A DNA stretch of 64,000 nt from Ostreococcus lucimarinus (taxonomy: Eukaryota): the NCBI GenBank assembly GCA_000092065.1, contig CP000595.1. One strand, 5' to 3'. Below, one piece after another: positions 1,681 through 41,300 of the stretch. A program made the translations under genes and the position numbers. The notes beneath the pieces are model-generated. The model worked only from the letters and a program-made list of their open reading frames with translations, did not search any database and was not told the origin of the DNA. Position 1 is the stretch's first letter, and each line of letters opens with the position of its first letter.

Positions 1681-4600
1681 CTATTTTCTTGCCGCGTGGT
1701 ACAGCTCAATGTAATCCAACGCGGGTCTGTTCCATGAGAAATCGCACGACATGCAGTTTGCTTGCAAGGCGTGGAATTTTTCTATGTCGTTGTAGAACAG
1801 ATCAATGGCACGGTTCAACGCGTAGTCAATATCGTGCGCTTCTGTACCGTCGAACTGAAATCCATTCGGTGTCATTCCTTCCCATTCAGCCTTGGCGTGA
1901 TCGTGATCGTAATCAAATACAGTGTCCGCGAGACCGCCCGTACGACGAACGACGGGAACGGTGCCATATCGCATCGCAATGAGCTGAGATAAACCACACG
2001 GTTCGAACATCGACGGCACGAGAATCATATCGGAACCAGCGTAGATCAGGTGCGATAACGGTTCGTCAAAGTACAAGTGCAAGGCGGCATCGTTGAAATG
2101 GTTCTGTTTCAAAGCATTCGCCATGTCTTCAAACTCGCGCTGCACGTTCGGATCCGGGGCGCTTCCGAGCAGCACGACCTGACAACCTCGCTCGAGCGCT
2201 TTGAAAATGGCGTGCTTGATCAGATGAATTCCTTTTTGATGCGTAAGACGCGTTACGACGCCGATGAGCGGTACGTCGCTCTTGTTTGAAATGTTACTCC
2301 TCGAGCACAAAGCTGCGCGACAAGCCGCCTTGCCTTCAGCAACTGTGTCTATCTCATATGATACCGGTAAGCACTTGTCATTCGCTGGATCCCAGATATC
2401 GGGATCGATCCCGTTCACCACGCCGTGGAATTTTTGGAGTTGATGAGAGATGGAGTCGTGACCTGAAATCTCTTGCGCGTACGATCTCGACACCGTTGTC
2501 CCAATTTGACTGTAATCCATCGCCTCGCGGATCAAGCTTTGACCAAAGTCGAGGTTGTGAATGGTGAACACCACTCGAGGGTTACCTAAGCCATAGTTGT
2601 GATAGTCTTCCCAGTACACCTTGGCCACGGGTGCGGTTTGCCAATCGTGACAGTGAATGATGTCGGGCTGTCGACCGCTTTGCAACATCCATTCCAAAGC
2701 TGCTCGACTAAAGTATCCAAATCTCTCGGCATCCGTCAAAGGAATCTCCAAGTAGTCGGTACCGTAAATCATGCCAACCTTGAACATACCATTGTCTGGA
2801 TCGATGAAGTAAGTCTTCACTCCCTCTACGGTACCGCTGAAAACGTGGTTGTAACAGCCACCCCACTGAAAGCCTTCCTCCTCCTTCAAGTCTTCGATGA
2901 GATCGTACTTGAGGACGTCGTATTTCGGAAGAACGACTTCAACTTTGTGCCCTTCCGCTTGAACAGCCAATCCGAGTGATGTGACAACATCACCAAGGCC
3001 ACCAACCTTGGCGATTGGAGCCATTTCGACGCTCACGCTCACGACGTGAAGCGGCTTCTCCACCACGGCGACACCTTTTTCATCCTTGCCTCCGATCACG
3101 GGAATGTGATAGTCCATGTTGTTACGGTTATCGTAGTGAGCTCCTTCGTGGTTTCCGTTGGAGAACACGAAATCCATCATGTACGCGTCGGTAGGGATGT
3201 TCAACTCAACTTCCATGCGCTTTTCGCCCTTGACAAGAACCTCAGTCATGGGGAGTTTGAAAGTCTTTTCGTGCGACCATCTGTTCCAACTCCCCACGAT
3301 AAACACGCGCTCAGACCCTTTGAGCGACGTGTTATTGGGATTATAGAACAGCTTCATGATTTTGCCTGCCTCCAACTGACCCGGCTCTGTGAAAAGTACA
3401 TGCTCTTGCTGCTTGAGCGTCACCGCTTGCGCCTTCGCCTTTGCCTCCGCTTTCGCCTTATCTCGCTTGTCCTTCTTGATCTTATCAGCCTTCTCTTTTG
3501 CGTGTCGAGCAGTCGTAATTTCTTGAAATCGTTGCAAAACTGAACTCATTCGCGCAATCTCGAGTTTTTGCGAAGCGTTGCGAACCGGAGCGTGGAAATC
3601 TGCGCGGTCGGCGTTGTCGTAAATGGCACCGCCGTCGCTAAAGACAAAATCCATCACAGCGGCAGTTGCAGGCACATCGACCGTCGCGATGAATGTATCA
3701 TCAGCGCCAGTAGACTTTTCCATTCGCACTTGCTCGGCACCGGTCCAGTCATTCGAGCCGTAGTGCATAACAATGGTATTTTGGCCGTGAAGAACTCTGT
3801 TGGTGGGGCAATAGCGCACCGTGACGGGCATACCGACGACTGGTACCGCAGGTTCAAGACTCCAGAGGTTGGCATCGCTCGGTGTCGAGCCGTCCAAGTG
3901 TCGCGAAATCCCAGAAAACTTGGCTGATACTTCATTCGTGGCGATTTCCCAGTCCTTCGCGGCCATCGGGATCGCCGCCGCAAGTTCCTTCGCCTCGTCA
4001 TACGCGACTTGCAGCTCAGCGGATAATTCCTGTTCCATACGGAGCTCTTCATCGAGTTCGATAGTGGAGACCGTGTTCTTTTGACTTTTGGCCAGTTCTT
4101 CGGCCGCGAGGGCTTGAAGCTTGGCTTCGGCAAGAGCAGCAGCCTTGACCTTGGCTTCGGCCTCTGCCACGGCCTTTGCCTTAGCCTCCATCTCAGCAGC
4201 GGCGGCAGCTTCAGCTTCGGCTTGAGCGGCGGCAGCTTCAGCTTGAGCTTCGGCTTGAGCGGCAGCAGCTTCGGCTTTGGCTTGAGCGGCGGCAGCTTCA
4301 GCTTGAGCTTCGGCTTGAGCGGCAGCAGCTTGAGCTTCGGCTTCGGCTTGAGCGGTTGCGGCTTGAGCTTCGGCTTCGGCTTGAGCGGCGGCAGCTTGAG
4401 CTTCGGCTTCGGCTTGAGCGGCAGCAGCTTGAGCTTCGGCTTCGGCTTGAGCGGCGGCAGCTTGAGCTTCGGCTTCGGCTTGAGCGGCGGCAGCTTGAGC
4501 TTCGGCTTCGGCTTGAGCGGCGGCAGCTTGAGCTTCGGCTTCGGCTTGAGCGGTTGCGGCTTGAGCGGCGGCTTCTGTGTTGACGGCGACGTCGATGATA

Positions 4601-11299: not shown

Positions 11300-11345
11300 C
11301 GCGCGCGCGATGGGCGCGCGCGCGCGATGGGCGCGCGCGATGGCG
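11300..11345. repeat. Three tandem copies of gcgcgcgatgg overlapping the GT25 start region, within the divergent promoter shared with the CULT-domain gene
   Basis: cgcgcgatgggcgcgcgcgcgcgatgggcgcgcgcgatggcgg gives three in-frame ATGs. Confidence 0.6.
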
Positions 11346-12683
11346 GCGGTGACGATGGTGACGCTCGCGACGTCGATCGCGGCGGCCGAACGCGTCGAAC
11401 GGGAGGACGCGGTGCGAATGTATTACGTCAACGCGCGCGGTGCGACGACGAAGCGATTGGAGATGGAGCGCGCGGTGGTGGCGCTGGACGCGCGCGCGCG
11501 AAGGATCGAGCGCGTGGACGCGAAGAGACGATCGACGCTGCTGATGACGTACGAAACGGCGACGTGTGGACGCGGAAGATTCGCGCCGAGCGCGCACGCG
11601 GAGCGACGAGAACGATTCGGCGAGGAGTACTTGAACGCGCTGGGGACGTCGCTGTCGCACCTGGAGGCGGTGTACGCGGCGTACGACGACGGGGCGAGCG
11701 TTGCGTTGATCATGGAGGACGATGCGCGATGGGACTTGCTGCCGACGTGGTCGAGCGATTTGGAGAAATTCGTGGAGCGGTTGCCGGAAGACTGGACCGT
11801 GACGCAGTTGTCGGCGCTCGGCGATTACGCCGAGACGACGAAATTGTTTTACGATTGGCAGCGCGAGCGAAAGAATGCGCCGGGACAGAGTTTGACGACA
11901 TTACCCAAAGGTTCGCGGCGTTTGAGCGGTACGCAGGCGTATCTGATCAGTCGTAAGGGGATGAGTAGATTAGTGAAGGCGTATCGATCGCCTGCTGGAA
12001 AAACGGATGTGTGTTCAATGACGTGCGTGGAGCTCGAGGAGTGCGTCTTGGCCGACGGTGTGCACTTGGATGAGAAGTATAGAGTCGCCACGCCGCCACT
12101 ATTTGTCGAACGCTCCCCAAGCAGCGACTTTCTCGATTCGTCGCGAAATATGATTCTCAGCTGGGCCGTCTCGCTGTCGCTGACTCAAGGCAAGGCGGCA
12201 AATTTGCGCATGGACGGAGATATGATTCGCGATGTTTTGGCGGAAGGCTTGAAAGTTCCCGAACACTTGAAGCCCAACACGTTCATGGAGCATTTCAATT
12301 ACCATTGCAAGCTCAATCACGGCGGTGGTTCAAAGTGTTCGATCAAAAAGGCGTACTTGGTCAACCAAAAGCCGCCACGGATGGAAGAGCCAGCTCTGGC
12401 CGAAGAAGCGCCCGTAGACGCCGAAGAAAATTTCCGAGGTCACAATGCATCCGCATTAGGTCGCGTGGTGATGTCTCGTCGAGATCTCGCTCCGAAAGAA
12501 ACGAGTATCTGGTCCGAGTATTCCAAATCGACGCCCTTCATTTCGATGTTCGTCTTCGGCGCGTTGACGACGTTTGTGCTCGCGGCGAGCTTCGTGTTCG
12601 CCAAAACACGCCCCGAGTCGTCCAGGGACGAGTTACAGACCATTCTCCCTATAGATCCGCAAACTGAGGAGTATTATTCCTAA
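11310..12683 (+). CDS. Glycosyltransferase family 25-like (LPS/collagen galactosyltransferase family), secretory
   Basis: It has an N-terminal signal peptide (MAAVTMVTLATSIAAA). GT25-like motifs are present: VRMYYVNARG and ...GTSLSHLEAVYAAY..VALIMEDDARW (GE.GC.LSH ... EDD). There is a C-terminal TM (FISMFVFGALTTFVLAASFVF). Confidence 0.45.
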   Translation: MGARARWARAMAAVTMVTLATSIAAAERVEREDAVRMYYVNARGATTKRLEMERAVVALDARARRIERVDAKRRSTLLMTYETATCGRGRFAPSAHAERRERFGEEYLNALGTSLSHLEAVYAAYDDGASVALIMEDDARWDLLPTWSSDLEKFVERLPEDWTVTQLSALGDYAETTKLFYDWQRERKNAPGQSLTTLPKGSRRLSGTQAYLISRKGMSRLVKAYRSPAGKTDVCSMTCVELEECVLADGVHLDEKYRVATPPLFVERSPSSDFLDSSRNMILSWAVSLSLTQGKAANLRMDGDMIRDVLAEGLKVPEHLKPNTFMEHFNYHCKLNHGGGSKCSIKKAYLVNQKPPRMEEPALAEEAPVDAEENFRGHNASALGRVVMSRRDLAPKETSIWSEYSKSTPFISMFVFGALTTFVLAASFVFAKTRPESSRDELQTILPIDPQTEEYYS

Positions 12684-14961: not shown

Positions 14962-17802
14962 TTATACGGGCGTACCGCCCCGATCTCGATCTCGATCTCG
15001 ATCTCGATCTCGATCTCGATCCGCGGACTCGCGCGTGAAGCCGTCTCGACCGTTCTCGTTTGGGCAATACTTTGCCACGCCGTCGTCCGAGATGGGCACG
15101 ACAGATTGTTCGCCGGCGTCGTAACTGATCGACGGCGACCACACGAGCTGGATGGTTTCGCCGACGTTCTCGAAGGAGTGAATCCAACCGCACGGCATGA
15201 ATAAAATGTCGCCCGCCTCGACGACGGCGCCGAAGCCGCGCGAACGCGCGATTTTGGGTTGTTTGTCCAAGTCGACGTTGAAGGCGTTCCCCAGATAGAC
15301 GGGATTGTACAACTCTTCACCGCCGACGCGCGCGGAGAGCGGGTAGAGGTTTTCCTCATCGGCGCGATCCCAGACGACGGCGCGTTTCGAGCCTTGAACC
15401 ACTAAAACCATCACGTGAGCCGGTTTGGCGTGATGATGCGCGTGATACGCTCGAACGCCATCGCCACTGGCGAAGAGCATAAACTTTTTGAACTCCGTAG
15501 GTCGCTCGCGAAAGAGTATCTTGGAGATATACGACCAGTCTCCGCGCAATTTCGTTTCGACAGCTGCTTTGACGCGTTCGGCGAGTGCCGGACATTGTTC
15601 AATAATGTGCCACGAGTGTACGCTCGGTGGCCATAAATTATCCGCTGGGTGTAAAAAGTCCACGCCGCGTTTTCTGGCTATTTTGGATTCCCCCATCAAC
15701 TCACTATCGAAAAAATCTCTCAGTGTTTTAATCTTTCCTTTGCCTTCGAGAAAATCCAACGTTTCATTCAGCGTCAAACCTCGTGTCGTTTCGAGACGTT
15801 CGGAAAGATCTCGCAAAAGTTTTTGATGCGTCGTTTTCGTCATAGACTGGAACAATGGCACTATTTTCGACCCCAAGTCGGCGAATGCATCGCCGCATAA
15901 ATCTAAAATGAGCTCTCGCGTCACGACGCTTCGTAGCACAGTTGCAAGGTTAGCGTTTTCGATCACCACTGGTTGCCCTTCCTTGACGTATTTCCGCTCG
16001 AACGCGTCAATTGATAGTGTAGATGCGTCAACGCGCTCGATGTTGTTCCACTGAAAACTCGGATCGCTCGACGACAGCAGCAGCGGTATATCATCATGTT
16101 GCGGCGCCTCGACCGTCGGCGCGCGTTTGTTTCGTTGATGATCCTCAACTCTTTCGCCACGACCGAGGTTGGCTTGATCATCTTGAATTCGAACTAAAGA
16201 CTCTAGGAAAGACGTAACACTTTGGGCATCGTTCGGTCCGATGAAACTCTGTGCGATCGCATTCAACTCCTTATGATTTCGCACATACGGCCCAAAGTGT
16301 GACGTTTTCATCTCGCGTCTGGCTTTTAGTGACTCTTCCACGGGCCACGGACAATTTAATGGATCGCAACACGGCGCATTAATGTCATACTGACTTTCTG
16401 CTTGAAGCAAAGTAGTCTTAAGCGCACCCTCAAAGCCGTAACGATTCAATAAAGTCGCGCGATCTTTCAGAAAGGCGACATCTTCTTCGGCGATGCTGTA
16501 CTTTTCCATCAACTCCTCTATTGTTGCGTCAGTGACTTCCGCCAAAAACGCGCTAAACGTGGAAGGAAACGTGCGGTGAATGGCACCCCCCTCCACCCAA
16601 CATCTGTAATCTAAGATAGCTCCGATAGTCGGTGACCAGTTTCCGTTTTCAAGCTCCACGATGCACGCCGGTTTAGTTTCGTTGGCAGACTTTGCGTGGC
16701 ACCTTTCCATCCACGGCAAAGTTTTTTCTTTCTCATAGATCACATAACCTGCAACATAGTGCCAGTGATGGCGCGTCCCGGGAATGCTCACTGTGCTGGT
16801 TTCGTCCTCACGTTTCAACATGTCCTCGTTGTCTATCAGCATCAACGACCCTTTGGCTTCGTCGATGAAGATGTTGAATATATTTCTGTCGTGGTTACCA
16901 AGGAGGAAGTCCATCAGAGTCATCCCTATGACGTCCTCTCGCTTAAGTCGCGATACAACGAGAAAAAGTTCTTTCGTCATCATGTTCTGGCCTGGTCTGG
17001 CACCATTGATATCAGTTGGCGCGATTCCCTTTGCCCAGTCTGTGACGAGAACGTGAGTGTTTTGCTTTCCACCAAGAGAACGTGTGTCGCGTGGCGTGAA
17101 AAACTTCAAAGTCTTTGCCTCCGTAGGCGACACAAGTCGCCCGAACCCCATTGTTTCGATCAATCGATGGATGGCTGATATCCTTTCCGGGGATCGATCA
17201 CGCTGACTGTGGAAACCGCCACACGTTTCGTCAACCGGCGTCGCGTTTGCGTGTTGACGAAATTGTCCACGAATACCGCACCAAGCCTTGACGCTCACCT
17301 TTTTCCCTTCGCTCGTAACTCCTCGCAACACCATTGCCTCAGATTTGCCGACATACCTCCCTGGATTTCCCGCGTCGATGCGCTCAACTTTGACGTCGCA
17401 GTCGCAGCGCTCGCACCACCCACGCGAGTCGACGACGTCGTCTTCGCCCAGCTCGGAATGAGGCACGCATGTGGAGCAAGACGAACACGTCTCAAAGCTC
17501 GCGCGTGTACGCTTGTGATTTGTGTCTGCCCCGCGTTCATCGTCACTATCTTTCCGCACGTCGGCGTCGGCGTAATCAGCGTCAGCGACACCATCGGCGA
17601 GTTTCAGCGCTCTAACAGCAATCGTCTCGCGACGCGGCGACGTCCTCGTGAGTGCGACGGTGAGCACGCACACGAACGCGATAGAATAACACGGTGGTTT
17701 CCACCGCGCGGGCCTTCGACGCCTCTTCGTGGCGTGATGCCACATCGGAGGCGCGGAGTGACGTCGGGACGGCGACAAGCGAGAAGGCGTCGTAGAACGC
17801 AT
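14962..17802 (-). CDS. Type-II membrane protein with a FAM20/Four-jointed-like secretory-pathway kinase domain fused to a C-terminal JmjC (cupin) domain and an (RD)n tail
   Basis: N-terminal signal anchor PCYSIAFVCVLTVALT. Fam20-like catalytic motifs: MDFLLGNHDRN (compare FDFLIGNMDRHH) and LMLIDNEDM (DN metal motif). JmjC signatures: HAKPAHVMVLVVQGSKRAVVW and GDILFMPCGWIHSFENV. The track start 17844 is TTG; ATGs are at 17802 and 17745. Confidence 0.55.
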   Translation of the reverse strand: MRSTTPSRLSPSRRHSAPPMWHHATKRRRRPARWKPPCYSIAFVCVLTVALTRTSPRRETIAVRALKLADGVADADYADADVRKDSDDERGADTNHKRTRASFETCSSCSTCVPHSELGEDDVVDSRGWCERCDCDVKVERIDAGNPGRYVGKSEAMVLRGVTSEGKKVSVKAWCGIRGQFRQHANATPVDETCGGFHSQRDRSPERISAIHRLIETMGFGRLVSPTEAKTLKFFTPRDTRSLGGKQNTHVLVTDWAKGIAPTDINGARPGQNMMTKELFLVVSRLKREDVIGMTLMDFLLGNHDRNIFNIFIDEAKGSLMLIDNEDMLKREDETSTVSIPGTRHHWHYVAGYVIYEKEKTLPWMERCHAKSANETKPACIVELENGNWSPTIGAILDYRCWVEGGAIHRTFPSTFSAFLAEVTDATIEELMEKYSIAEEDVAFLKDRATLLNRYGFEGALKTTLLQAESQYDINAPCCDPLNCPWPVEESLKARREMKTSHFGPYVRNHKELNAIAQSFIGPNDAQSVTSFLESLVRIQDDQANLGRGERVEDHQRNKRAPTVEAPQHDDIPLLLSSSDPSFQWNNIERVDASTLSIDAFERKYVKEGQPVVIENANLATVLRSVVTRELILDLCGDAFADLGSKIVPLFQSMTKTTHQKLLRDLSERLETTRGLTLNETLDFLEGKGKIKTLRDFFDSELMGESKIARKRGVDFLHPADNLWPPSVHSWHIIEQCPALAERVKAAVETKLRGDWSYISKILFRERPTEFKKFMLFASGDGVRAYHAHHHAKPAHVMVLVVQGSKRAVVWDRADEENLYPLSARVGGEELYNPVYLGNAFNVDLDKQPKIARSRGFGAVVEAGDILFMPCGWIHSFENVGETIQLVWSPSISYDAGEQSVVPISDDGVAKYCPNENGRDGFTRESADRDRDRDRDRDRDRGGTPV
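14981..15022. repeat. (CGATCT)7 microsatellite encoding the C-terminal RDRDRDRDRDRDR tail of the kinase/JmjC protein
   Basis: cgatctcgatctcgatctcgatctcgatctcgatctcgat. Confidence 0.9.
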
Positions 17803-17879
17803 GGGAACTAAAGCGACGCGTGCGTAACGAATGCGCTGCTTCAATCACGATAAGTCTATCTATTGATTATTGCTTAATA

Positions 17880-20800
17880 CTATTTTGGGGATTCCCGCGA
17901 GTTCGTGGAGTGCGCGGTGAGATGGCGCTCGTCCAAGGCGATTAAACGTTCGCCGCGTCGGTGTGTTCGAGCTTTCCAGCGCTCACGTAAATCTTGCAAC
18001 TGTGAGCTCAAAGCGCCGTGTTGCTGGCGAATAGTAATCGTAGAGTCAGCCTTGATCGTTTCAAGTAAATCGTCGTCGGCGAAAGGAAGACGTTGACCAG
18101 TCATGCTTCGAAGTTGGATGCGTTCGCTTTCCTTTGCCATTTTCTCTTGATGAATGATCTCTTCGTCTCTCTTGGCGTCGAATTCGTCGACAATCGCCTC
18201 TTCAAATTCCAAGTCGCGAATAGCGCGCTTGATGAGGCCTTCTTCGCCCTCTTCGCGGAACTGGCGAACCAACGTTCGGGCAAAATCATACCATGCCCAT
18301 GCGTGCAGGATGAACAACAAGGCCGTGATGAGATCGACAAAAGTCGAGCCTTGTCCACCTTGTTCGCCTGATTGTTTGAAAATCAGTCCGCCGGTGAATG
18401 TTGCCATAGTAGCAAGTAAGCCATGTGTCTCGATCTTTGCGTACTTTTCGCCGGCATACGGTTTTGCGACGATGTGGAATACAAAGAAAAGTTGCAACAT
18501 ACAATTCACCGTGTATCCACCAATGACTGCACTTCGTCTAGATACGATCACTATGAAGATCAGGATGAATTTTCTCGCGAATATGACCCATTCCCACCAC
18601 CACGCGGACTTGACATTGATTCCCTTGAAGAGCAAACCGAGACGATATTGCACCATTGCTGAATCGTGCTCGCCGACAATGTCTTCTCCGCGAGCGAGCT
18701 GCAGCAAACCGTATGGAATACCGACGATATACAGTATAGCCCAAACGATGACCATAAACAAGTAAAGTGAGTAGGCGGTGCCCCGGCATTGGACCGAATA
18801 GTCGGATACAAAGTGTCGATCGCTGTCGCCAGACGTACCAGTGCACTGCGTGAACTCAGCCAAATATTGAACAAGGGTGGGATAGAGAAGCCACAGAGTC
18901 GCGACGAGCCATGATATTACTATGTCGTAAGCTCTGATGTTTCGCACTTCTTCAAGACCGACATCGTGCTTGTTCACTTTATTCGTGTTACCACTATCGA
19001 TGGCGTTTGTTTCTTCATCTTCAGCAGAATCATTTGCCTTTGTCTTCTTCGTGGCTTCCACTCTAGCTTGGGCCGTTGCCTCTCTCAACTCTTCGACGTA
19101 CTTGATAACCGTGAAGATGATGAACAAGAATATCATCAAGCCTAGTGGGAGCAACTCGTGAAACAGTAGATTTCCGTAAAACTTCCAGCCAATGGCGCAC
19201 TTTGCTGACGCCGACCGTATGTCAGGTAACGAAAGCTTCTCGGCGATAAGTAAGAATGCTTTCATCGAATCCGGCCATGCGAGGTCTAAATTTTTCGCCA
19301 ACGCTGTCATTTGTAAATAGGTGACAAACGATTTTATCATGCCGACGACTTGTGAACTTCGGCGTTGATTGACAACCCGAATGAGCCACACCAGCAACAA
19401 TATCCAGAGAAAGTTGACGACGACGATCGGAAAGTTGAGCACTCGATATGCTCCTGCCGAACAATCGTAACATTTTGGTGGATATGCTTCTCGAATGGCG
19501 TGGTACGCATAACCATTCGCACAAGCTGCGCACATAGCACCAGTGTACCCTGCATCAAGACATGTGCTGTTTACGCCGCCTAGGCACGCGTCAGGGTACG
19601 GACACGCGCGAAATTTCAGCGTTTGTCGGTCAAATCTACTGAAACCAGGAAGCGCTTCGACATTTTCGAGCTCATCACCGTAACATTTTGCACCTTTCGG
19701 GCATGCCATACATTTGTAATCATCGAGTGGGAGTTGTCGATAATAGCTCTCGAATGGGACACTCGTTTGAGAGATGCAGTGGCAGGAACTCTTGCTCACG
19801 TGACCAAGGGCGCCTAAAAGTTGCACTCCTGACTGTGCTTGATATGTTTGCCTCAATCTGCCGTCAACTCGCGAAGTATCCATGGAGATTGGGCACGACG
19901 TGCATGCTCCGTCACCGTGCGCCACTTTGTAGAAGCCATTCTTGCACGGCACACACATGCCATACGGGTGAAGAGCATCGAGCCATCGAGATGACCCAGA
20001 TGTAGCTGTCTTATATAGAGTTATATTCGTTTCGACATAAATGGTATCGATATCTTCAGTATATCCCGTGCCTCCACTAATGTCGGCGGTGAAGCCAGGA
20101 ATGCACTCGCACACGCCAGAGCGAAGCACGCTGTTCGGTTTGACTGTTGAGCAATTCATGACCGTCGTTGGAGTTGAAGGTACGATACTCACATTCAACG
20201 TTGAAGCCGAAAAATTCAGCTCATAGGCATTCGCGCGCTCACCGATGATTGTGATTGAATCGAATTTCGCCAAGCCGTTCACCATCGCCGCCTCTGTCCC
20301 TGAAATGCTCGCCACAGCGGGCGATACACTGACCGTAAGCGTCGTATTGATATCGACGCACACGTTTCCTACAGAATCGATCGCCGCGATGACTGGTGCA
20401 GGCGAAAGTGCGAAGTCATTTTCGTTTATGAAGGGAGGTGCCGTGACGACGGCCAACGCTGTCGGCGCGCCAGGGACTACGGTGAACTCCAACATGTCAG
20501 TCTCCAGCACAGGATAGAGCGCACCAGGACATCGACTTGAGCCACATGATGAAGCGAATCGCAAGCGATAGGTCCCAGCTAATGCATTTTGAATATGCAG
20601 ACCGACATTATAGTGTGTGTCGGGCGCAATACCACTATACCCAGCCTCCCTGCAATATGATGGTGCGGGGTTGGTGTACACCACTCTGTACGTGTAAGCA
20701 CCAGTCGTGGGATTACTGGAGACCACAGTCCTCGGGCTAGAGTCAAGTGAATCTTTGCACCATCCCACTCCACCATTTACTGCGAGAAGAGATCCATCCC

Positions 20801-23800
20801 ATTCGGCTTGCAAGGTTGGTAGCACACTTGCCCGTGGTTGATCCTCCGCTGGCACGAAAGAAAATAGCTCAACCGTGATGTTACGCGCTTCGGTGTCCCA
20901 CATCGAGCCCACATGATAACCGCCAGGATCAGTCATTTGCACGACAAAGTCACGAAGATCCAGGGTTTGCGCTGCGATATATTGTGCAGGATCCCGACAC
21001 AAACCTCGGTCGACACGTGTGAACGAGTTACCGGTGCACGTGTCAAGCGCCGCTGGGTACCCAGCGCTGTAAGTCAGTTGTGTGGAGACCGAATCGAGAC
21101 CCGCTGTAGAAAACGTCAATGAGTACGTTCCGGTGCACGGTCGATAGAATACGATATCATCAAACACCGCTGTGCCCGCAACGATAGTCTGAGGTGTGTA
21201 TGATACATTCGTCTCAAAGTTGCAAGCGCTCACGACCACGCGCTCCGCCTTTACAGAAACTTCGTAATTTAGGTTGAGCGCATTCAAGCCTGCATCGACC
21301 ACACGAATCTGAATCATACTCAATTTTACTTTTTTTGCCGTGGAATACGCAGTCTGCAACGCGATTGCTGCACCGCTGGCAGGTGACGTGAAAGTCTGAA
21401 CAATTAATCCACCATTAATATTTTGCATGAAAAAGAAAAAATAAGTAAGCCTTACCGGTGAGATGAAAAGCGCACTTGCAGTGCCAATCGTAATCGTAAA
21501 TGTACGAGTCGCGGGCGCAACGCTGAGCCCTAACGCGGTACAATTGTCGCAGTTGAAAGAAATCACATAATCCCCGATCTGTAATTAATTGTGTGTGAGG
21601 ATGAAAGTTCTAATGAAATCTGTCATCAATGGGAGCGTACCTCTGGGGCATTGATCACTGTGTCACGAAGTAGTGTACTGTCGGTTCCCGCCGCTATGAC
21701 GCCATTTCTCCCGCTCGTCGCAAACGTATGCCTACATTTTGAATAAAATTAATTAATTCCGGTTATGAATTAATTAGAATCGAAACGTACCTTTGACCCA
21801 CGATACTGGCGATAATACTGTACTCGTGAGTGTTAAGCGACCCGAAACGATTACCTGCGTCATCTGCGATCGCAATTTCGAAAGGGCCGAGGGTTGTTGA
21901 TGCCGTCGCCGGGTATGATCCTTGTGGTGAATTTGCCACGACCAGTTTAGCTGGATCTCCTAACGCCACTGTTACCGCATAAGTCGCAACGGCCTTGCCG
22001 TTGAGATAAAATACGATATCGTGCTGCTGCGCAGTCGGCGCGAGCAGCACGAGGTTCTTAAACTCAACGACGCCGGGTGTGCCGCCCTGTGTATTTAAAT
22101 AAGTTAATTAATTGTTCTCCGTGAAATAAATAATTCATCGCGTTCGAGCATAGTTGACTCACCTGAGTTGCACACGTCGTAGTGCTACCACACGATATCG
22201 CAAAAGTTTCCCCTCCTATCAAGGGATTAATTCCCTGTGGATAAGCCGCCAATTCGGCGGTTTGGCAGACAACAAATATTTGTGCCCCGGTCGGCGAAGC
22301 CGAAATAAAATTCCCTCCGCCATCGTAAAGTCGCCCAACTAGAGGACTAGAAGCGTTCGCAATCGATGTTTCTAGCTTAGATTTGAATGTTCCACTACCT
22401 TGTGTTTCGTCGAGGATCAATTGTGCCGCATTTCCCAAAGTCACGGAAAAGTAGTACTGTGCACCCAGCAGACCCGGCGAGTGGATGTCGACGGCGTACG
22501 TACCGATGTACGGCTTGGCGATGTGTAGTCCATCAAAATAGCTTCCACCAGACTCAGTGTTGGCTTCAAAAGTCGCCACTGATGTACATGATACTCCATG
22601 CAGTGTCGACGATGTACTGGCAAGCCCAGCACATTCGCATGCGTTGCCTTCACCAGTTCTTCTGCACAAGGTGACATTTTGCGGCGATAAGTGCACACGT
22701 CTGCTAGGACATGTCTCGCAAGCTTTCGTTTCAAGATCATCGACGGGATTGAAAGCTCCGTCGAGAATAGTCACCACGACTGGGTACATTGCAACGTCCG
22801 ACGCGGCGCGATATTGATGACAAGTGCAGTTGACATTAGTTTGGCACGCTCCGTCGACTGTGGCGCAGTACGGCAGTAAGCCGAGGTGATTGGATCGCCC
22901 TGCCGTGATCTCTAAATCCACGCTTGCAGACCTCAAACTCGAATCGGACGACACGAAAGTCAAATTGTACGTTCCTTTCTGCGGCTTGACGAGATGCAAA
23001 CCTGAGAACGTCGCAGTCCCAGCGCTCGAAGTGGTTTCCACAAGAGAGCCGGTCCTCGGGTACAGTGAAGTATCTGTGTATACAGTAAGTACCGACGTTC
23101 TTGCGATTGTTGTCGCATTTGCACCGAGTATGAACGGATGAATTTCGACGTTTGTGTCATTCATCATCGCCGTCAACGTAACTCCGTTCGGCAAAGTCCC
23201 CGTCGGCGACTCATTTCCCGCCCCATCCACCGGTACGACGACGAAGTCATCCAGAGGCACAGAGTGCCCGGCTGAGTATGCTGTTGCCTCGGATAGTTGG
23301 ATGCTTTCAGTGAATGATGGTGAAAATTCTAAGACTTTGGGGCTGGTGACCTTGAATCCGCTCACGGCTCCAATCAAAACGCTCACCGTGAGAACTGTAC
23401 TTTGTAGCTTTCCCACGCGCAACTCGCCACTCACTTCAGCGCCAGTCTCAATGACATTAAGGGTGTGCGTACCGACTTTCGGTGAATTTGCAATCAAACC
23501 CGTGAAAGAAACTTGACCGTTGCCATTCGTGAACATCGCAGTCGTTCCAGAAAGTTTCAAAGTTTCGCAAGTCACTTGAATGGTACGATTTGGCGCTACT
23601 GCATCCGTGGTTGAGTGACGATCCGCGGTTCCCATTGAATTGCCGAGCATATCTTGAACGTATACCGTGAACGAACCCAATCCTACAGATTGATCAGCTG
23701 TTACCGATGATAATATCGATTGACTCGAAGCTAGTTCATATCCAGCATCTCCAGCTAGCACATTCACCACTTGGAGAACGGGTGTTAAATCGCCAGACGA

Positions 23801-26800
23801 GAATGTCAATCCGAACTCCCCGACGACAGGTCCGACTACTTTGAGATCAGAAAATCGCCATACACCGCTGTCGTCTCGTTTTACTTGCAAAGTACCATCC
23901 AAAGTGATACCAGCCGATGCATGTACGGTCACAGTACGCGGCGTAATTTCCGCCGCACCGACAAAGTTATTCCCCCCGTCGTATGCGCCAATGATAATTT
24001 CACCTACGGATTGCTTGGGTGCCTCGGCGTAAACTGTTCTCTTACTATACGTCCCATTTATACGAAGGTAAGACGGTTCGCCGATCTCCATTTGCATAAT
24101 TGAATGCGCGCGATATCGAACTCCATTCAACGTCGTCGTAAACTGAACAATGTACTTTGAAGCCTCGCCAAAGTCTCCTCGTGTGGCATCGCTATACGTG
24201 ATATCGTCCGTGGATCCTACAGCTCGTGAACCAGAAGGTGGCATAGCGACAAGTCTGAGATCTGAAAATGATACTCGACCATCATTAGTCGTCTTGTTCA
24301 GCGTTCCAGTGAGCTGGGCTCCGATACTTCTCTCTCTGTAGTCTTCGTTGCTGTTGAGTGTACCCGTCACGAGTGACGCTTGTACGGTGACGTCATCAAG
24401 AGATAGCGTCTGAAGCATACTTCCACCGATGTCAACGATGTCGACTGTCAAATGTCCGATCGATACGTTTCGGGCCGCGTCGAGCACGACGACATCTGTT
24501 GGAAATAACGTAGCACTTGATATCATAGAATTCTCCGTCGCCGCGCCGGGTGTCACCTTCAAACCACCGCTCGAACCTGGTGTTACGGATAAATAGGCGT
24601 GTGCAAGTACACCAAGGTCATCACTACATGCACCATCATCATTGGTACAATCGGTTGCGGTAAAAGTGATCACGTATTCCCCAGCGGTTGGTATCGAGGA
24701 TAGCTGTGGAGTGAATGTTGCGATGCCGTCCGAAGTCTGCACTGATGACGTTGCCTCGGTGATAGCGACCTCTGACGGCCCAGAAATACTCGCCGAAATT
24801 GTGTAACCTTTCGTACCTCCTTGACCACGGTCATAGTTGATTTCAGTTCCATCGATATCCACAAGTCCAACCTTGAACGTTCCAAGTGAGAAATCTGTCG
24901 CGGCAACTCGAGCTTGATGCGAATCCGGTCCACTCAAGAGCTTAACTCCAACTGGTGGTCCATGAAGCTTCAAAATCCCTCCACTAACGTAATCAATACC
25001 GTTCAGTGCAACTGCGACCTGCGCATCTTGCGGTTGTCCGTTCGTAAGCCATGGAAGCGGACTCCCAACTGGATTGGCGCACCTTCCATTGACTACATTG
25101 CACACAGGACACTTGATTTCTGACGAACTAACGAACACCGCACTGGTCACACTCGTCGTGTTATCGTTGAACTTACATTTTAAATCGGGCGAATTCAGAA
25201 ACGGACCTCCGAGTATGCGAAGCAGTACTGGCGCGAGATCGGCATCCTCGCCTGTGAGAAGAACCTTGGCGTCATCTGAACCAATCTTTGTACTAATTAT
25301 GACGGCTGGATCGTGATAACGTAGATATATCTGACCAGAGTTCCACAGCGAGTTGGTCCAAATGCTTGTTGGATCGCTCGAATCGGTTGGTAATCCATCG
25401 AACGATATTTGGACTTCGCTATAACCTATAGTGGAGGAGTTTGAATTTGACGCCGACGGTGCCATGCATGAGAGCTCTGTCGCCGAAACATAAGTTGCTG
25501 GCGACCAAGATGTCTTCGAAAACCCATTATTAGCGTCATAAGTGTGTCCAAACCTACATGAAATCGAATGACTCATTCCACTGGCAAGGGTAGGCGAATA
25601 AAAGCCAGATCCATGAATTTTTATCGGCGTTCCAGACGTGAGCGCGCTGATGTGAGTCGGCTCGATCCCCGAAACGATCACCGTGGAGTACTTTGTGTAC
25701 GTCGTACTCGCCGCAGAACTCACCGCGAACACGCTGCGCTCGCCCGGTACGGCGCTGATGCCACCGATGGTGTGGCTTTCTTCAAATGTCCCCACACGCT
25801 TGAAACAACCGCTTATACAAGCACTAGACGTGTCCGTACCCCCTATTTCGATCTTGACGATCCGACTCTTACCGCTTTCACGCGATCCCACGGCCCAGTA
25901 CATGAAATCTTTTTCTCCTGCCGTCGCTCCGGTTTGAACGGTAGCGCTCAGAGCATCACGCTCTCCGAGCGCTGCGTCAAGAGCAATCACGGCGAGTGGA
26001 CTATCGCCTTCAGCAAAATTCAAGTCAAACATGAAGATGCATGCCGCGCGATTTTTACACCCCGGACAGTCGCCGTCTCGACCTGAAGTGCCCACGTATC
26101 CATAGCCGTTGTGCTTTGTGATCGCAGTAAACGTCGAAAAGCGTCCTTGCTTTGAATCGAGCTGCCCTTCGCACGCCTCGAGCACCTTGACGTTTGTTGA
26201 GTCCAAATACATTTCAACCCCATCGCCGTCACGAGTCCCTGAGTTTGTATTCACCTTGAACAAAGTAGGATAAAAGGTTTTGCCATCGGAGTCATCCAAG
26301 AGGGCAGATCCAGCGAAGATGACATAGTTGACACCTGTTTGAGTATGCGCCACACTCGTCTCCAACCTCATGGCGTCCGGGGCAAGCGAACATGTGGGGC
26401 ATTTAGTGCTCAGTAAACCCGGAGCTAAGAAGTTTATTCCTTTATCGTTCAAACTGCCGTCGACGTGACCAATGACGCTTCGCGACAGACCGTCTTCGTG
26501 CGTGGCCTTGTACACTATCATGCCGTTGGCTGGGTCTGTGCCCATGGCATCCAAAATGTACTGCTCTTTTGAGAAAGTCGCACTCGCCTGACCATTTGTC
26601 AATGAACTGAGAACGCAGTTCGCCCACTGCGATGAATCTGATGAGCATGTAGTACCGACATACTTGAAAAGCGAAAATCTAAACTGATTTGCCGTGGTCT
26701 GATGCCACATGTTCACTGGCACGACGACGCCCGTCAGCGCTGTCGACAAATCGGCAGCCATTTTAGCGTACACTCCGTACCAACCGCGCGACTTCTGAGG

Positions 26801-27379
26801 ATCCACATGTCCATATGCTCTCGGATGCTTCGCTGCGCACCCGCTCGAGATCCCAATACCGCAAAAATTTGGCAAAGGTGTTATCGACAATGGCACCGCG
26901 CCCGTTGTCTCTCGTCTCGGTCCGTTCGTTTGTCCCCAACCTCTCGCCGTCACTGCGTTTGAGGTAAAAGTCTCCGGATACCTCGGATCGACTTCGATCA
27001 CTCGCGTTCCATTAGCATCTTGCGCGTAGACGTAAATTACGTTCTTTCGCGTGTCTACCATGACGTCTTCGACGTACTTTTCGTCGTACGCCGTCCCGGC
27101 GGTGTCGTACTCGTACCCCGCCGTCCCATCCAAGCGCGACTCTTTCACCACCGATGGCGTGGGAACATCGCACGCAAGTCCTGCCCATCCTGCCTCGCAC
27201 GCGCACACGCCGTCTAAGCCGCATCGCCCCTGTCCAGCGCTCGCCGAGCACCCGCGCTCGCAACGATTGAACGTCAAGCCTTGACATGAGTGCGCCAACG
27301 ACGCGATGACGACGACGAGCGCGACGGTGACGAGCGCTCTGAACCCTCGGCGCGAGCTTGTACGACCGTTACCACCCAT
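17880..27379 (-). CDS. Giant (about 3080 aa) receptor-like membrane protein, 5 exons: complement join(22163..27379, 21791..22086, 21641..21731, 21456..21578, 17880..21395)
   Basis: A signal peptide is followed by an EGF-like module and a long extracellular region of beta-sandwich (IPT/TIG-like) repeats. Next come GCC2/GCC3- or ephrin-receptor-like Cys modules (CVPCKNGFYKV..CTSCP), then 7-8 TM helices and a cytoplasmic coiled coil. ATG at 27379 (MGGNGRTSSRRGFRALVTVALVVVIASLAHSCQG). The three track ORFs 22064-27634, 21763-22050 and 17880-21566 are joined in frame. The four introns are 76, 59, 62 and 60 nt with GT..AG ends; the track ORFs read through them (for example VRLTYFFFFMQNINGGLIVQ is intron 4 translated). 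Confidence 0.6.
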
Positions 27380-27920
27380 CGTCGCGCGGCGAGCGGCGCT
27401 TGAAGTCGCGCGTTCCCGCACGCTCACCCCGCGTCCCGCGCGATGGCCGCGGCTTCCGACTTCACGAGACGATGCGACGCGCGCTCGAGCGCGTCGTCGG
27501 CGCGAGCGGCATGGACGACGAAGCGAATGAGCGCTGAGACGAAGTTTGTGTGTTATACACGCACCGCTCGGCGTCGACGCGGTGGAGTGACGCGGCGACG
27601 CGTTGACGCGAGACTCGACCACCAACGACTCCAAGCGACGAATGGAATCGTCGCGGCCGCCTCGGCGACGCGGTCGTTGGTTCGTTTGTGAGTTTATTTT
27701 CGTTTCAACGAGTTTTTACGCTTTGAAGAGTAATAATGGACTATTATTTTAGATATTGAAAAAGGAAAGTTGCAAACCCCAAGTCATGTCGCGAATCGCC
27801 CGTCTCGGCGCCCAAAGGCGCTTTGAGACGACGAGGTCGAAGACGCTAAACGTGCGATTTTGAGACGACCGCTCGATCGCGTGCGACGAATTTGAGTGAA
27901 ACTTTGAAATAATTTGAAAT

Positions 27921-28835
27921 TCACGCCTCAAGTGACGCTTGAGAGAGGTTTCTATACATTTCCAGAGATTTAACGGGATGGTACAGCGCGTCGCGGCGAA
28001 TCGGCGCAAGTCTGGGTACCGCGTCAAAGTCAAAGGCCGGACGCCAGCGCATGTAAGCTACGTCGGGACCCAAATCACGGAACGAGAATGTGTCGGAATT
28101 CACCGTGAGGAAAGTTGGTAGGAATGCCTCGTGATGTCCGCTGCTTCTGGTAGAAGTGGAGAGGTGCGCCACCGCGGCGGCGGCAAAGTTTCGCGAGATC
28201 CGAAACGCGGGCAACAAGGCACTTTGCTTGCACCAATTCGGAAGGCCTCGACAGTACGTGCAAGATGGCCAGTGATTCCATGCCGTCTTGTTTGAGTACC
28301 GAAATGTTGTGTTGAAAGCGATGAGATCACTCGAATCTGATTCGTATTTCTCAAAAAGCGTTTGCCACGAGCCGGTGAAAACCACGTCGGGCTCGATGAT
28401 CCAGCCGAAGTCGATCCACGCTTGATCTGGCTGCGTGAGCCATCTCAAGGCTCTTGGCTTCACTGAAGCACCGTATATTCCTGAGAACAACTCGAACGAA
28501 TGACTTCCGTAACGCAATCGTTCCACCTCCCGAGAGGCTTGCACGACTGTCGCGTCGTCGGCAGTTGACGTGTTGAACCAAGGGCGAAACTTGCCTTCAT
28601 AAACCAACACTTGGGCAGAGATTCGTGCAGAGCGAGTGTTCGAGAAAACCGTGTCGCGAGCGAGGCGGTGCAGATCGTCTAGTTTCCTGTCGTTACCAAC
28701 CGTCAGAATTACGACTGTGTGTACGCTACTTTTTGTTTCTGGAAGGGGGTAGAGAAAGGCGAAGAGAAACGAACCACACACGAGCACAAGGAGCAGCCAA
28801 CGCTTAGTCAGTTCACGAGCCCGGCGCTTGCGCAT
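27921..28835 (-). CDS. Type-II membrane (signal-anchor) protein, putative Golgi glycosyltransferase-like, family unknown
   Basis: N-terminal anchor WLLLVLVCGSFLFAFLY followed by a roughly 270-aa lumenal globular domain. ATG at 28835. No confident motif was found. Confidence 0.4.
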   Translation of the reverse strand: MRKRRARELTKRWLLLVLVCGSFLFAFLYPLPETKSSVHTVVILTVGNDRKLDDLHRLARDTVFSNTRSARISAQVLVYEGKFRPWFNTSTADDATVVQASREVERLRYGSHSFELFSGIYGASVKPRALRWLTQPDQAWIDFGWIIEPDVVFTGSWQTLFEKYESDSSDLIAFNTTFRYSNKTAWNHWPSCTYCRGLPNWCKQSALLPAFRISRNFAAAAVAHLSTSTRSSGHHEAFLPTFLTVNSDTFSFRDLGPDVAYMRWRPAFDFDAVPRLAPIRRDALYHPVKSLEMYRNLSQASLEA

Positions 28836-38323: not shown

Positions 38324-41300
38324 ATGACGCGCGAGGAGCGAGGATCGTCGGCGAAGAAGAAGCGTCGAACGTCAACGTCGAGCGCGAAGGGCGAGAGCGG
38401 GGCGACGCTCGACGGACAACGCGAGGCGCGCGCGCTCGGGCCGTGGTCGACGACGGCGCGCGCGCGAGAGGAACGCGCGCGCGCGCGCGCGCACGCGAGC
38501 GCGAGCGCGAGTGGGAAACGAACGAGGGAGGAGGAGGAAAAGGGATCGTTTCGTGGATTATTCGTGGATTGTCGGACGGTGGACGATGACGCGGCGTTCG
38601 AGGCGTGGGAACGGGAGATGCGGGCGGTGGGCGAGGCGCTGCGCGAGTGCCCGTGTACCGAGAAAGACTGGGAGAGCGTGGGGGCGATGGAGAGTGCGCA
38701 AGGCGAAGGCGAAAGTGATGCGTGGGAAAGCGAGAAGATTTGGCTTCATAAGATGTCACGCATCGCGTTCTACGACTCGCAACCGCTGAGCGAGACGAAC
38801 GCGTGGCCGTTCGCTTCGAGAACGAAGAAGGACGCTACAAAGTCGACGGTGGCGCTCTTCAAGGCGAGCGTCTCGGCTTTCATCGCAGCGAAAAATACGC
38901 AGCGACTTGCGGAAGTGGACTGGAAATTACAAGAAAATAAATTAATCAACAGTTGGAAAGAATTGCTTATGACCCACACGCCTCGTCCGGGAGGCTTGGC
39001 AGACGTGTCGTGCGAGTTCAACGTGCACGTCACAGCGCTCGAGCAAGAGTTGGCGAAGAGACAAAATGAAGGTGATAAATCGGATGAATTTGGACGGCGC
39101 ATCAAACACATCAAAATCATGATACAGGTGTTGCAAAGCATAAAGGCGAGCTTCCAGTACTGCGCCACGGCGCTTTATGACACCGTGTTCGCGCCTCTGA
39201 GAGCTTTTTCTTCGGCGTCCATTACGAGTGAAAATTTCGAATCCGGCGTGGAGTTCGTCTCATGGGCCAGTCGCTCGGTGATGATCGCATCCGAACTGTG
39301 CCAAACGAAAGATTCATATCACGTTCGAATGACGCGATACACCAAACACGAGTTTTTGAATTGGTCACGAAAACTTTTGGACTTCTTCTACCACCACCTA
39401 TCGTCCGTGAGAGGTTCGCACATTGTCGAAACACTCGGGTCAGGTAGTGATTGTGCAGAATTAATGCAGCTCATCAAGTGCTTACCCACCATGCGTCTGA
39501 CGCTACCGTGCAAAGGGACTAGCCGGCGTGCCACCTATCTTTCGGACACAAGATTTTCGGACAAATTTCAACGAAAGCTGACACGATTCGCTCTCACGGT
39601 GATCGGTGCTGCAAAGTCTCAACTTTCGCAGCACACACAAACGCACAAATTAGGCAAATTTCTGTTCCCGGAGTGGATCGAGCATCTCGTCGATACCATC
39701 GAGCACAATAAGAGTTACACAGTGAAAGAGCTAGCCCGGGAGATTCTTCTCTCGTTGGATATTGCCAACTTGCTCGCAACTCGTGTAGAAGTGCTCAGCG
39801 TAAAATCTCTCATAAAATTGTCTGACGATGAATTGTCTGTCGACGACGAATTGTCTGTCGACTACGATGACGACGTAAAAGAGCTCAAAGAGTTGTTATC
39901 ATGGCTTCGCTCAATATTAAGCGTGCATCCATCCAAGTTGAGGAACGTGGCTGACTTGGCGAAGGACTTGATTTCCGTCTTTGGATTCTGTCGCCTCCGA
40001 CGCGAAACACATGGTGACAAAGTTCAAAAAAGTGGGCATGATCATAGTTTAGAGTCGGACATATGCAGTATCTTTGCGTGCCTCGCCGTCAGTCGCGATC
40101 ACGACCTTGACGATGAAGAGAAGCTCAAATCTTGTCCGTGTGAGATGGTCAAGTTGAGATCTGAAGACGCGAGAAAAATGATTCAGCAATTGGTGATGCA
40201 TGAAGATCATCTCGACGATGTCGAGGCGGTGATTTTGAATATGCTAACGCTGGATCGAACGAGCATGTCAGCGAGCGATACAACCATCCCTTCCGCTTTG
40301 GCCGCGCTGACTATGTTGGTCCGAAAAAATTGTGTCCTCAGGGAGCGATTTTTCAAATCGGGCGACACCACCAACACGTTGTTGGAGATTCTTGAGTGCA
40401 AGAATGCGAACGTAGCGCGCATCACCAGCGCTTGCATTCTGTCATTCGAAGAGCATCATCGGCTCGTGACTAGTTTGTACAAACCGAACGTGATCACCGA
40501 TAAAAAAGGCGAGCAAGTGACTGAAATATCTGGTTGGGACGTTGACACGATTCGTCAGTCGCTCAGAGCCATCTCTGCGCTCGTCAAAGACTCTACCGTG
40601 TCTTCAATCGGTTTCGATAGCGCCATTTTGGAAGTCATCTGCACTGATAGGCGAATGCTTGTTCTTACGAACAAGATCAAGGCGACGATAGAAAAGAAGA
40701 TTAACAAGAGTATGGATTATCCCAACTCCCGGCTCTGCTTCCCAGAAGCTCTGCTTGAAGAATGGGTGTTCGATCTACTCTGCATGAGAAGCGATCTTCT
40801 CACTCAAATGGCCACTGCGGTCACAAACGGCGGCGGTGACCCGTGGAAAAACTTCAAGCCTAAACATGAAGAGTTCGCGAGTTTCATCAGTCGTGAGTTT
40901 GAAGTCGCGAACACCGACGCGACGATACCACCGGAGGCGCACGCAGAATGGTTTCAAGAGGTCGTGACATTGGTGACAACTGTGCAAGAAAAACTCAAGA
41001 AAGACGAGGAAATCTCCGACGTCTGCAGTATTTTGATGGATGGAGACACCGATGGTCCATCTTCCCGTGTTGGTATCGTAGTCCCCATCTTAACTCTGTT
41101 ACACAAATGTCGCATCTTGCAGGAGCACAATTTGATTTCCGAGCTAGAAGTCGAGGGCATCAGCGATATTGAAAAAGAAGCGTGTTACGTCATCGGCTTA
41201 TTAGCGAGTAAGCAAGGAATTCAAGATCGTATCGCAAGCTCTTTCCTTATCGAAGGCAAGAACGGAATCGAGCAATTAATTCCGCTCTTGCAACGATACC

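Follow-up and report, generated by a model that had tools for sequence, protein, structure and literature searches.

Three long open reading frames (ORFs) follow one another on the minus strand of a 64,000-nucleotide (nt) stretch of the Ostreococcus lucimarinus genome (assembly GCA_000092065.1, contig CP000595.1; here called the window). Do they represent three genes or one? The ORFs comprise 1,856 codons (22064-27634), 95 codons (21763-22050) and 1,228 codons (17880-21566). A preliminary description of the sequence had joined them through four very short introns into one giant, receptor-like gene. Here we examine this proposal by comparison with related loci and conclude, with high confidence, that the three ORFs belong to a single five-exon nuclear gene predicted to encode a membrane protein of 3,080 amino acids (aa).

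Gene model of the locus

Joining the five exons of the minus strand (Table 1) gave a coding sequence of 9,243 nt, a multiple of three, with 3,080 codons and a single terminal stop. The exon and intron coordinates proposed in the preliminary description proved exact to the base, and the reading frame is held through all four introns. Each of these has GT-AG ends, and together they are packed into 770 nt in the middle of the gene, where the GC content falls to 24-37% within the introns compared with about 51% in the flanking exons. No in-frame ATG is present in the ORF upstream of the start codon at 27379. With two ORFs as long as 5.2 and 3.7 kb on the same strand and an arrangement shared by nine loci (see below), the gene structure is far beyond chance.

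Intron 4 is in frame and stop-free in the window, and the 1,228-codon ORF runs straight through it. The ORF logic of the window therefore does not force its removal, which rests on orthologues and other homologues.

Conservation of exons and introns in related loci

Similarity searches returned only ORF fragments from metagenomes, and the contigs carrying them were aligned to the model with a purpose-written dynamic-programming aligner for spliced protein-to-DNA alignment. This gave eight independent orthologous loci (L002/3, L004, L005, L006 and L008-L011); counts of nine loci or 36 introns add the window. The orthologues share 57-62% aa identity with the model in their N-terminal halves and 58-65% in their C-terminal halves, and the loci are syntenic, with an upstream leucine-rich repeat (LRR) gene and a gene of about 300 aa.

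Four GT-AG introns were found in each of the eight orthologous loci, after model aa 1739 (phase 0), 1837 (phase 2), 1868 (phase 0) and 1909 (phase 0). Their lengths range from 46 to 76 nt and often differ by non-multiples of three; exons 2 to 4 are constant at 296, 91 and 123 nt or altered by whole codons only. Upon retention, an in-frame stop would lie inside the intron in 30 of the 36 cases. At the position of intron 4, the orthologous introns measure 50-64 nt, mostly non-multiples of three or stop-bearing.

We also analyzed the ratio of nonsynonymous to synonymous substitution rates (dN/dS) over 1,710 spliced nt across all four junctions, which was 0.14 for L002 versus L004 and 0.29 for L010 versus L011. 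This spliced frame is stop-free, and in both comparisons 1-nt indels are confined to the introns. Judged by these patterns, the spliced frame is under purifying selection. Furthermore, junctions 1, 2 and 3 fall inside two copies (aa 1683-1766 and 1807-1877) of a repeat in the protein, delimited with an iterative hidden Markov model (HMM), so that splicing restores whole repeat units.

Two uninterrupted homologues cover the same region. P0102, a protein of 3,168 aa encoded by a single ORF (L007:654-10160), is colinear with the model from aa 1451 to about aa 2800. P0095, on contig L014 (48% GC), covers model aa 1494-3073 in one frame. Its alignment with the spliced segment aa 1688-2012 (E = 1e-33) has gaps of four residues at most where the junctions lie, and junction 4 shows no insert of 20 residues. 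The proposal of one gene with four micro-introns, encoding a multi-pass, receptor-like protein of about 3,080 aa, is thus borne out by the conservation of the introns in eight loci, by purifying selection and by these two homologues.

P0102 is 26% identical to the model, has the same domain order and is intronless, on a contig of 67% GC with a GC content at third codon positions (GC3) of 0.84. Hence another alga, possibly a Micromonas-like one, has a member of the family in the form of a single-exon gene of high GC. Homologues with 28-35% identity were seen at L012/L013:4099-14900 and L014:1-7388, on contigs of about 48-50% GC, a Bathycoccus-like composition. They lack introns 1 to 3 and have frame breaks elsewhere, including a frame shift in L012 in the vicinity of intron 4, near model aa 1910-1922. 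The L012 neighbours TCP1, SKIP and a tRNA synthetase are likewise broken up into small ORFs, which would be expected in a region like that of the big outlier chromosome (BOC1). For L012, about 28% identical, spliced alignment was too weak to place introns. In the orthologous locus L005, the aligner could keep the frame of exon 2 only with an additional GT-AG segment of 38 nt (L005:15483-15520). This segment could be a fifth micro-intron specific to that lineage, or else reflect a fault in the assembly or an artefact of the aligner.

As had been foreseen, ORF-based callers do not recover the gene as a whole, and prokaryote-style gene calls in metagenomes cut it into pieces of 1787, 95 and 1228 aa. 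The fragments of 1787, 95 and 1228/1229 aa share one protein cluster at 90% identity (the cluster of P0001). Non-overlapping fragments in one cluster imply that a bridging full-length sequence must exist in public data, where the spliced model or a transcript is probably already present. The representative of this cluster is the N-terminal fragment only, and a search with the C-terminal half therefore gives no 100% match.

Table 1. Coordinates of the gene model, of regions of the predicted protein and of two neighbouring genes (positions in the window)
Feature	Position (strand)	Length	Protein (aa)	Remarks
Exon 1	22163..27379 (-)	5,217 nt	1-1739	Start ATG 27379; signal peptide, EGF-like module, N-terminal domain, TIG, first Ig-like repeats; basis includes orthologue alignment A6
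Intron 1	22087..22162 (-)	76 nt		Phase 0; GTGAGT...ACAG; 32% GC; contains TTAATTAA; 70-76 nt at same position and phase in 8 orthologous loci
Exon 2	21791..22086 (-)	296 nt	1740-1838 (last codon split)	296 nt in 8 of 9 loci; gapless alignment to uninterrupted homologue P0095
Intron 2	21732..21790 (-)	59 nt		Phase 2; GTACGT...GTAG; 24% GC; TAATTA twice
Exon 3	21641..21731 (-)	91 nt		
Intron 3	21579..21640 (-)	62 nt		Phase 0; GTACGC...ACAG; 37% GC
Exon 4	21456..21578 (-)	123 nt	1869-1909	
Intron 4	21396..21455 (-)	60 nt		Phase 0; GTAAGG...TCAG; 27% GC
Exon 5	17880..21395 (-)	3,516 nt including stop 17880-17882	1910-3080	Last Ig-like repeats, Cys-rich modules, membrane core, cytoplasmic tail
Signal-peptide-like N-terminus	27278..27379 (-)		1-34	Basic n-region and 15-residue hydrophobic core; hydropathy 1.98, read from sequence
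EGF-like module	27161..27265 (-)		39-73	EGF_Teneurin 23.4 bits (cut-off 24.3), EGF_2 16.2 bits; weak
Conserved N-terminal domain	25685..27157 (-)	~490 aa	75-565	Many invariant columns in alignment A6
IPT/TIG region	24965..25684 (-)		566-805	PF01833 34.3 bits (cut-off 20.9); two stretches, from about aa 569-650 onward
Ig-like beta-sandwich repeats	20169..24877 (-)		835-2318	At least 10; span includes all four introns
Cys-rich modules	19443..20165 (-)		2320-2560	Directly before first membrane helix; align with DUF7631/DUF7630 part of TgCRMPA core
Membrane core	18243..19442 (-)	~400 aa	2561-2960	7-9 helices; motifs WWWEW...RK and P(Y/F)...xLE conserved
Cytoplasmic tail	17883..18242 (-)	120 aa	2961-3080	E/R/D-rich, helix-prone
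Intronless neighbour	11310-12683			Identical to O. lucimarinus CCE9901 XP_001421598.1 / A4S8C6
Intronless neighbour	27921-28835			Identical to O. lucimarinus CCE9901 XP_001421748.1 / A4S8D1

Intron sequences and base composition

All 36 introns have GT...AG ends, with the consensus GTA(A/C)GT at the donor and (C/T)AG at the acceptor. The motif TAATTA or (TTAA)n is present in 32 of them, compared with 4.2 ± 1.8 (maximum, 11) in 2,000 shuffles, and lies mostly 9-30 nt upstream of the 3' splice site; intron 4 of the window is one of the four without it. TAATTA could be a branch-site-like signal, given its fit to YTNAY, or it could serve to supply stops in each of the three frames and so lead to decay of unspliced mRNA. 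In the window, six of the eight occurrences of TTAATTA fall inside the four introns (1.8 expected in total). The occurrences at 55062 and 62899 were considered as introns and rejected, as neither is one, and a regular-expression search combined with a low-GC scan revealed no further micro-introns of this type in the 64 kb. CTGAC was seen about 20-25 nt upstream of the AG in some introns.

Within the region orthologous to window positions 21100-22800, the introns diverge less than synonymous sites do: 3-7.5% versus a proportion of synonymous differences (pS) of 15.5% for L002 and L004, and 12-20% versus a pS of 44% for L010 and L011. This suggests that most intron positions are constrained.

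The giant gene has a GC content of 0.50-0.52 and a GC3 of 0.51-0.53, compared with 58-64% GC in the window otherwise and a GC3 of 0.6-0.76 in neighbouring genes. Its orthologues show the same low-GC island (GC3 of 0.46-0.50 in the L002 orthologue). A second low-GC island in the window, at 38324-43258, encodes a 1,644-aa protein with ARM and BTB domains (GC, 0.51; GC3, 0.59).

Short introns of a comparable kind are known from BOC1 of Mamiellophyceae (Ostreococcus, Micromonas and Bathycoccus). They are 40-75 nt long, AT-rich (<43% GC) and mostly GT-AG, are restricted to the low-GC portion of this chromosome and have been described without conserved motifs (PMC3491373, PMC3879977). Like these, the introns of the giant gene are short, AT-rich and GT-AG, show a sharp drop in GC relative to the exons, and occur several to a gene in a low-GC gene. 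They differ in that one of the four, at 76 nt, is 1 nt past the <75-nt limit, and apparently in that the gene forms a gene-sized low-GC island within a window of 58-64% GC (from a record of 468,366 bp) instead of lying in a long contiguous low-GC region, as would be expected of BOC1. The conserved donor and the presence of TAATTA in 32 of 36 introns likewise set them apart from the motif-free description of BOC1. That the four introns are a BOC1-like class outside BOC1 with a defined TAATTA signal is a speculative suggestion; it is offered separately from the reading of the membrane core given in the Discussion, with which it shares one joint, low probability.

Architecture of the predicted protein

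Most of the domains named in the preliminary description were recovered (Table 1). Hydropathy analysis revealed a hydrophobic N-terminal segment at aa 15-33 that resembles a signal peptide, as claimed, and the N terminus of this membrane protein is type-I-like. The Pfam scan, run on the protein in pieces, did find the proposed EGF-like module, although its score stays just under the Pfam cut-off. The conserved domain that follows (aa 75-565) had neither a Pfam match nor a match among PDB sequences. TIG matches are also precomputed for the orthologues. The proposed beta-sandwich repeats were recovered with the iterative HMM, which found at least 10 copies of a repeat core of about 75 aa within aa 835-2306. 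Predictions for a single unit are all-beta and immunoglobulin (Ig)-like.

Ephrin-receptor/GCC2-GCC3-like Cys modules had been proposed as well, and Ephrin_rec_like matched aa 2389-2417 at 25.4 bits, above its cut-off of 23.1. A DUF7630-like module at aa 2504-2540 scored 23.6 bits, below the Pfam cut-off of 27. The expected 7-8 transmembrane helices agree with 7-8 hydrophobic segments between aa 2566 and 2943. In a low-confidence AlphaFold 2 (AF2) model of the core (predicted local distance difference test [pLDDT] score of 60), 9-10 helices were present, some of them probably not membrane-spanning, and no specific fold match was obtained. PDB sequence searches with three profiles, including one of the membrane core, yielded nothing significant. 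In the cytoplasmic tail, the sequence RLPFADDDLL (18063-18092; model aa 3011-3020) is invariant in all eight orthologues. Its DDDLL part fits the DXXLL type of acidic-dileucine sorting signals and hints at trafficking between the trans-Golgi network (TGN) and endosomes.

Similarity to CRMPs and to fungal TRP-like proteins

To characterize the membrane core, a profile of model aa 2540-2965 and six orthologues (A2) and a broader family alignment (A3) were used, together with core sequences of cysteine-repeat modular proteins (CRMPs) from S3 Table of PMC9815656. With the A2 profile, 3,732 representative proteins were matched at E ≤ 1e-3, of which 715 reached E ≤ 1e-10. Typically, the matched part lies at the C-terminal end of proteins of 1,500-8,000 aa, and the members sampled bear Ephrin_rec_like, TIG, DUF7630, NCD3G or ELAPOR-type Cys modules. 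A word-indexed search with a diverse core alignment found only five proteins, one of them with a named source, Holothuria, and the viral contigs searched contained no relatives of the membrane core.

BLASTP aligned the C terminus of the window protein with the TgCRMPA core over 560 aa (E = 2e-16; identity, 22%), a stretch that takes in the Cys modules and every helix. In hhalign comparisons, A2 matched TgCRMPA with 96.8% probability (E = 2.8e-10) and A3 matched the Paramecium protein XP_001426280 with 99.4% (E = 1.4e-21). The TgCRMPA and PbCRMP2 cores score 58-68 bits on DUF7631 and DUF7630. The weak DUF7630 match of the window protein lies at the equivalent place of the CRMP cores; DUF7631 was undetected in it by Pfam, though the region aligns to TgCRMPA by BLASTP. 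Taken together, these alignments make it very likely that the Cys modules and helical core are homologous to the conserved core of apicomplexan and ciliate CRMPs. The preliminary description had called the architecture rare outside animals, which is not supported: the core family has thousands of representatives, many of them giant, so that the architecture is common among eukaryotic sequences, and the core is homologous to that of alveolate CRMPs.

The conserved core of CRMPs consists of two EGF-like Cys modules and transmembrane domains (PMC9815656), with nine transmembrane helices, the N terminus outside and the C terminus inside. Rhoptry and mucocyst discharge upon contact depends on CRMPs as its trigger (PMC9670195, PMC9815656). 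A heteromeric CRMPA/B complex also belongs to the description of these proteins. The window protein shares the overall plan of TgCRMPA/B, PbCRMP1-4 and Tetrahymena CRMP1/2. A signal peptide is followed by a large modular ectodomain of variable make-up, whose adhesive and Cys-rich modules are of the EGF-like, Ephrin-receptor-like and Ig-like kinds; next come the core, with two Cys modules and a multi-helix membrane domain, and a cytoplasmic tail. The host is different, being a green alga that has neither rhoptries nor mucocysts nor trichocysts. The ectodomain also differs, being made of TIG and at least 10 Ig-like repeats with no Kringle, MAR or lectin domain, and the likeness to CRMPs is limited by an identity of only about 22%, a DUF7630 match below cut-off and an undetected DUF7631.

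The second relationship concerns PF06011, the "TRP" domain of the fungal Pkd2, Flc and TrpR proteins (PMC9600462). PF06011 matched 9 of 18 family cores at E ≤ 1, the best at 3.4e-12. In P0176, it scored 33 bits (cut-off, 28.5) at residues 269-702, and the window profile matched residues 265-710 of the same protein at E = 3.5e-18. On these matches, we give about even chances to a link between the core and PF06011 through intermediate family members. Schizosaccharomyces pombe Pkd2 has a signal peptide, an Ig-like ectodomain, a nine-helix transmembrane domain (TMD) of 405 aa and a cytoplasmic coiled-coil tail (bioRxiv 10.1101/2022.08.11.503631). The window protein resembles this protein, Flc1 of Saccharomyces cerevisiae and Cryptococcus, and Aspergillus TrpR in its signal peptide, extracellular beta-sandwich domain(s) and multi-helix domain of about 400 aa (nine transmembrane helices in the fungal proteins). 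The PF06011 proteins have a cytoplasmic tail with a helical or coiled-coil segment; that of the window protein is charged and helix-prone. Unlike in the fungal proteins, the ectodomain is about 15 times larger and has Cys-rich modules that they lack. A TRP_N/ML-like domain was not found in the window protein, with no Pfam match to PF14558 or PF02221.

Alternative explanations

Were the three ORFs separate genes without splicing, they would encode a secreted protein of about 1,770 aa, a 95-aa peptide and a membrane protein of about 1,150-1,230 aa. Prokaryote-style gene callers do list the pieces apart in every metagenome assembly examined, and the lack of transcript data also leaves room for this arrangement. 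We regard it as very improbable for the following reasons. What lies between the ORFs reads as conserved protein only once GT-AG introns are taken out, at identical positions in nine loci, and individual repeat units extend over the junctions. P0102 and P0095 each span this region with one ORF. In addition, the C-terminal ORF has its first ATG within a repeat unit, and the ORF fragments cluster together at 90% identity. A decaying pseudogene, in which the AT-rich segments would be frameshifting insertions and not introns, could account for a GC and GC3 unusually low for this genome and for interruptions clustered in 770 nt. It is even harder to reconcile with GT...AG ends and the consensus GTA(A/C)GT...(C/T)AG at 36 of 36 interruptions, with positions and phases kept across lineages whose dS is saturated, and with a stop-free spliced frame of 9.2 kb at a dN/dS of 0.14-0.29, and we consider it extremely improbable.

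Two other alternatives concern the product. Retention of intron 4, possible in this species only, would give a second isoform of 3,100 aa with VRLTYFFFFMQNINGGLIVQ inserted in an Ig-like repeat. The intron is 60 nt long, in frame and stop-free here, and it is among the 4 of 36 introns that lack TAATTA. Such an isoform seems unlikely, because its counterparts in the orthologues (50-64 nt) are mostly non-multiples of three or contain stops, P0095 has no insert at this point, and the inserted peptide is hydrophobic and would disrupt the beta-sandwich repeat. The likeness to adhesion receptors raised in the preliminary description holds for the architecture only, a large modular adhesive ectodomain on a multi-helix core with a cytoplasmic tail. 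A receptor of the adhesion G-protein-coupled receptor (GPCR) type that signals via G proteins has also been proposed for TgCRMPa; PANTHER calls TgCRMPa and PfCRMP1 GPCR-like, and HHpred gives GAIN-like matches in Tetrahymena CRMPs (PMC9670195). For the window protein this is quite improbable, given that no 7tm (7tm_2) or GPS/GAIN Pfam match occurs anywhere in it, that CRMP cores have nine helices and not seven, and that family members match the Pkd2/Flc TRP domain instead. Animal adhesion GPCRs and giants of the polycystin-1 and fibrocystin type likewise carry a very long modular ectodomain (EGF, IPT/TIG, Ig-like) on a multi-pass membrane domain, yet their membrane domain has no detectable homology to the one described here, which lacks GPS/GAIN, REJ, PLAT and 7tm; the resemblance is one of analogy only.

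Several points weigh against a five-exon gene for a CRMP-like protein. By exact look-up, the 3,080-aa model is absent from the protein collection, which contains raw ORF fragments only; neither the read-through N-terminal ORF, started at its ATG, nor the C-terminal ORF, started at its first ATG, is present there. Searches of Joint Genome Institute (JGI) metagenome contigs for the spliced junctions (junction 1 exact; junction 4 with free wobble positions) gave no matches, without a positive control and in a collection that may hold no transcripts. The gene model rests on comparative and not on transcript evidence, no transcript having been seen. Retained intron 4 would add 20 aa, and an isoform longer by these 20 aa remains compatible with the window sequence. 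We know of no extrusomes in Ostreococcus, and the function of CRMPs is thus not simply transferable. Finally, the core of the window protein did not match PF06011 at E ≤ 1, and the cores of alveolate CRMPs do not match it either, so that this link is transitive only. With these points taken into account, a five-exon gene for a CRMP-like giant membrane protein, proposed to act as a contact sensor or mechanosensor, is probably the best explanation of the locus as a whole.

Neighbouring genes

The other genes of the window fit a green alga and include a starch synthase with CBM53, a ResB/Ccs1 homologue and the ARM-BTB protein; two intronless neighbours are listed in Table 1. An ORF of 960 codons (14962-17844, minus strand) begins 36 nt past the stop of the giant gene and has matches to Cupin_8 (JmjC-like) and, weakly, to PI3/PI4-kinase-like domains. 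We considered it as a further exon and rejected it, since it follows the conserved stop, is not found in synteny with the giant gene at the orthologous loci and encodes domains of its own (Cupin_8, kinase-like).

Discussion

The genome is public, short AT-rich introns are known as a class in Mamiellales, and the locus is not a new kind of system; the gene itself has probably been deposited as a "predicted protein". To our knowledge, the CRMP assignment of a green-algal giant protein, the bridge to PF06011 and the slowly evolving TAATTA micro-introns in a gene-sized low-GC island are apparently undescribed in the literature searched. The low-GC-island setting, the TAATTA motif and an intron rate below the synonymous one have not been stated for BOC1 introns in the literature.

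If the protein acts as the architecture suggests, it would be located in the plasma membrane with the stalk outside, the N terminus out and the C terminus in. The Ig-like/TIG stalk might meet a ligand, a particle, a partner cell or a virus, or bear mechanical load. Contact or load would alter the state of the membrane core, perhaps a cation-channel-like module of the Pkd2/Flc type, and the signal could reach the cytoplasm via the conserved acidic tail and cause a membrane event, such as exocytosis or trafficking. By analogy with the related proteins, we propose such a sensor or channel function only tentatively.

A broader and more speculative reading, which we hold to be improbable as it stands, is that the CRMP core is of ancient eukaryotic origin, as a cation-channel module of the Pkd2/Flc (PF06011) lineage gated by contact or force, and is not an invention of alveolates. 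As part of the same reading, and with no higher probability, Ostreococcus would have retained a single giant member, which would serve as the principal contact sensor of its surface and respond to mating partners, prey-like particles or prasinoviruses. Ostreococcus is the smallest free-living eukaryote, with no known extrusomes and with neither flagella nor a wall.

The model, backed by comparison, repairs a protein of 3,080 aa and does the same for the orthologues of eight or more related lineages of picoalgae. It places a giant surface protein of the CRMP type in a green alga, for a family studied so far only as a trigger of invasion or exocytosis in alveolates. Ostreococcus tauri is genetically tractable. 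The bridge in sequence that connects CRMP cores with the TRP-like domain of fungal Pkd2/Flc offers a testable hint on CRMP signalling, and if the channel-lineage reading is true, apicomplexan CRMPs would have to be re-read as channels and not as GPCR-like receptors.

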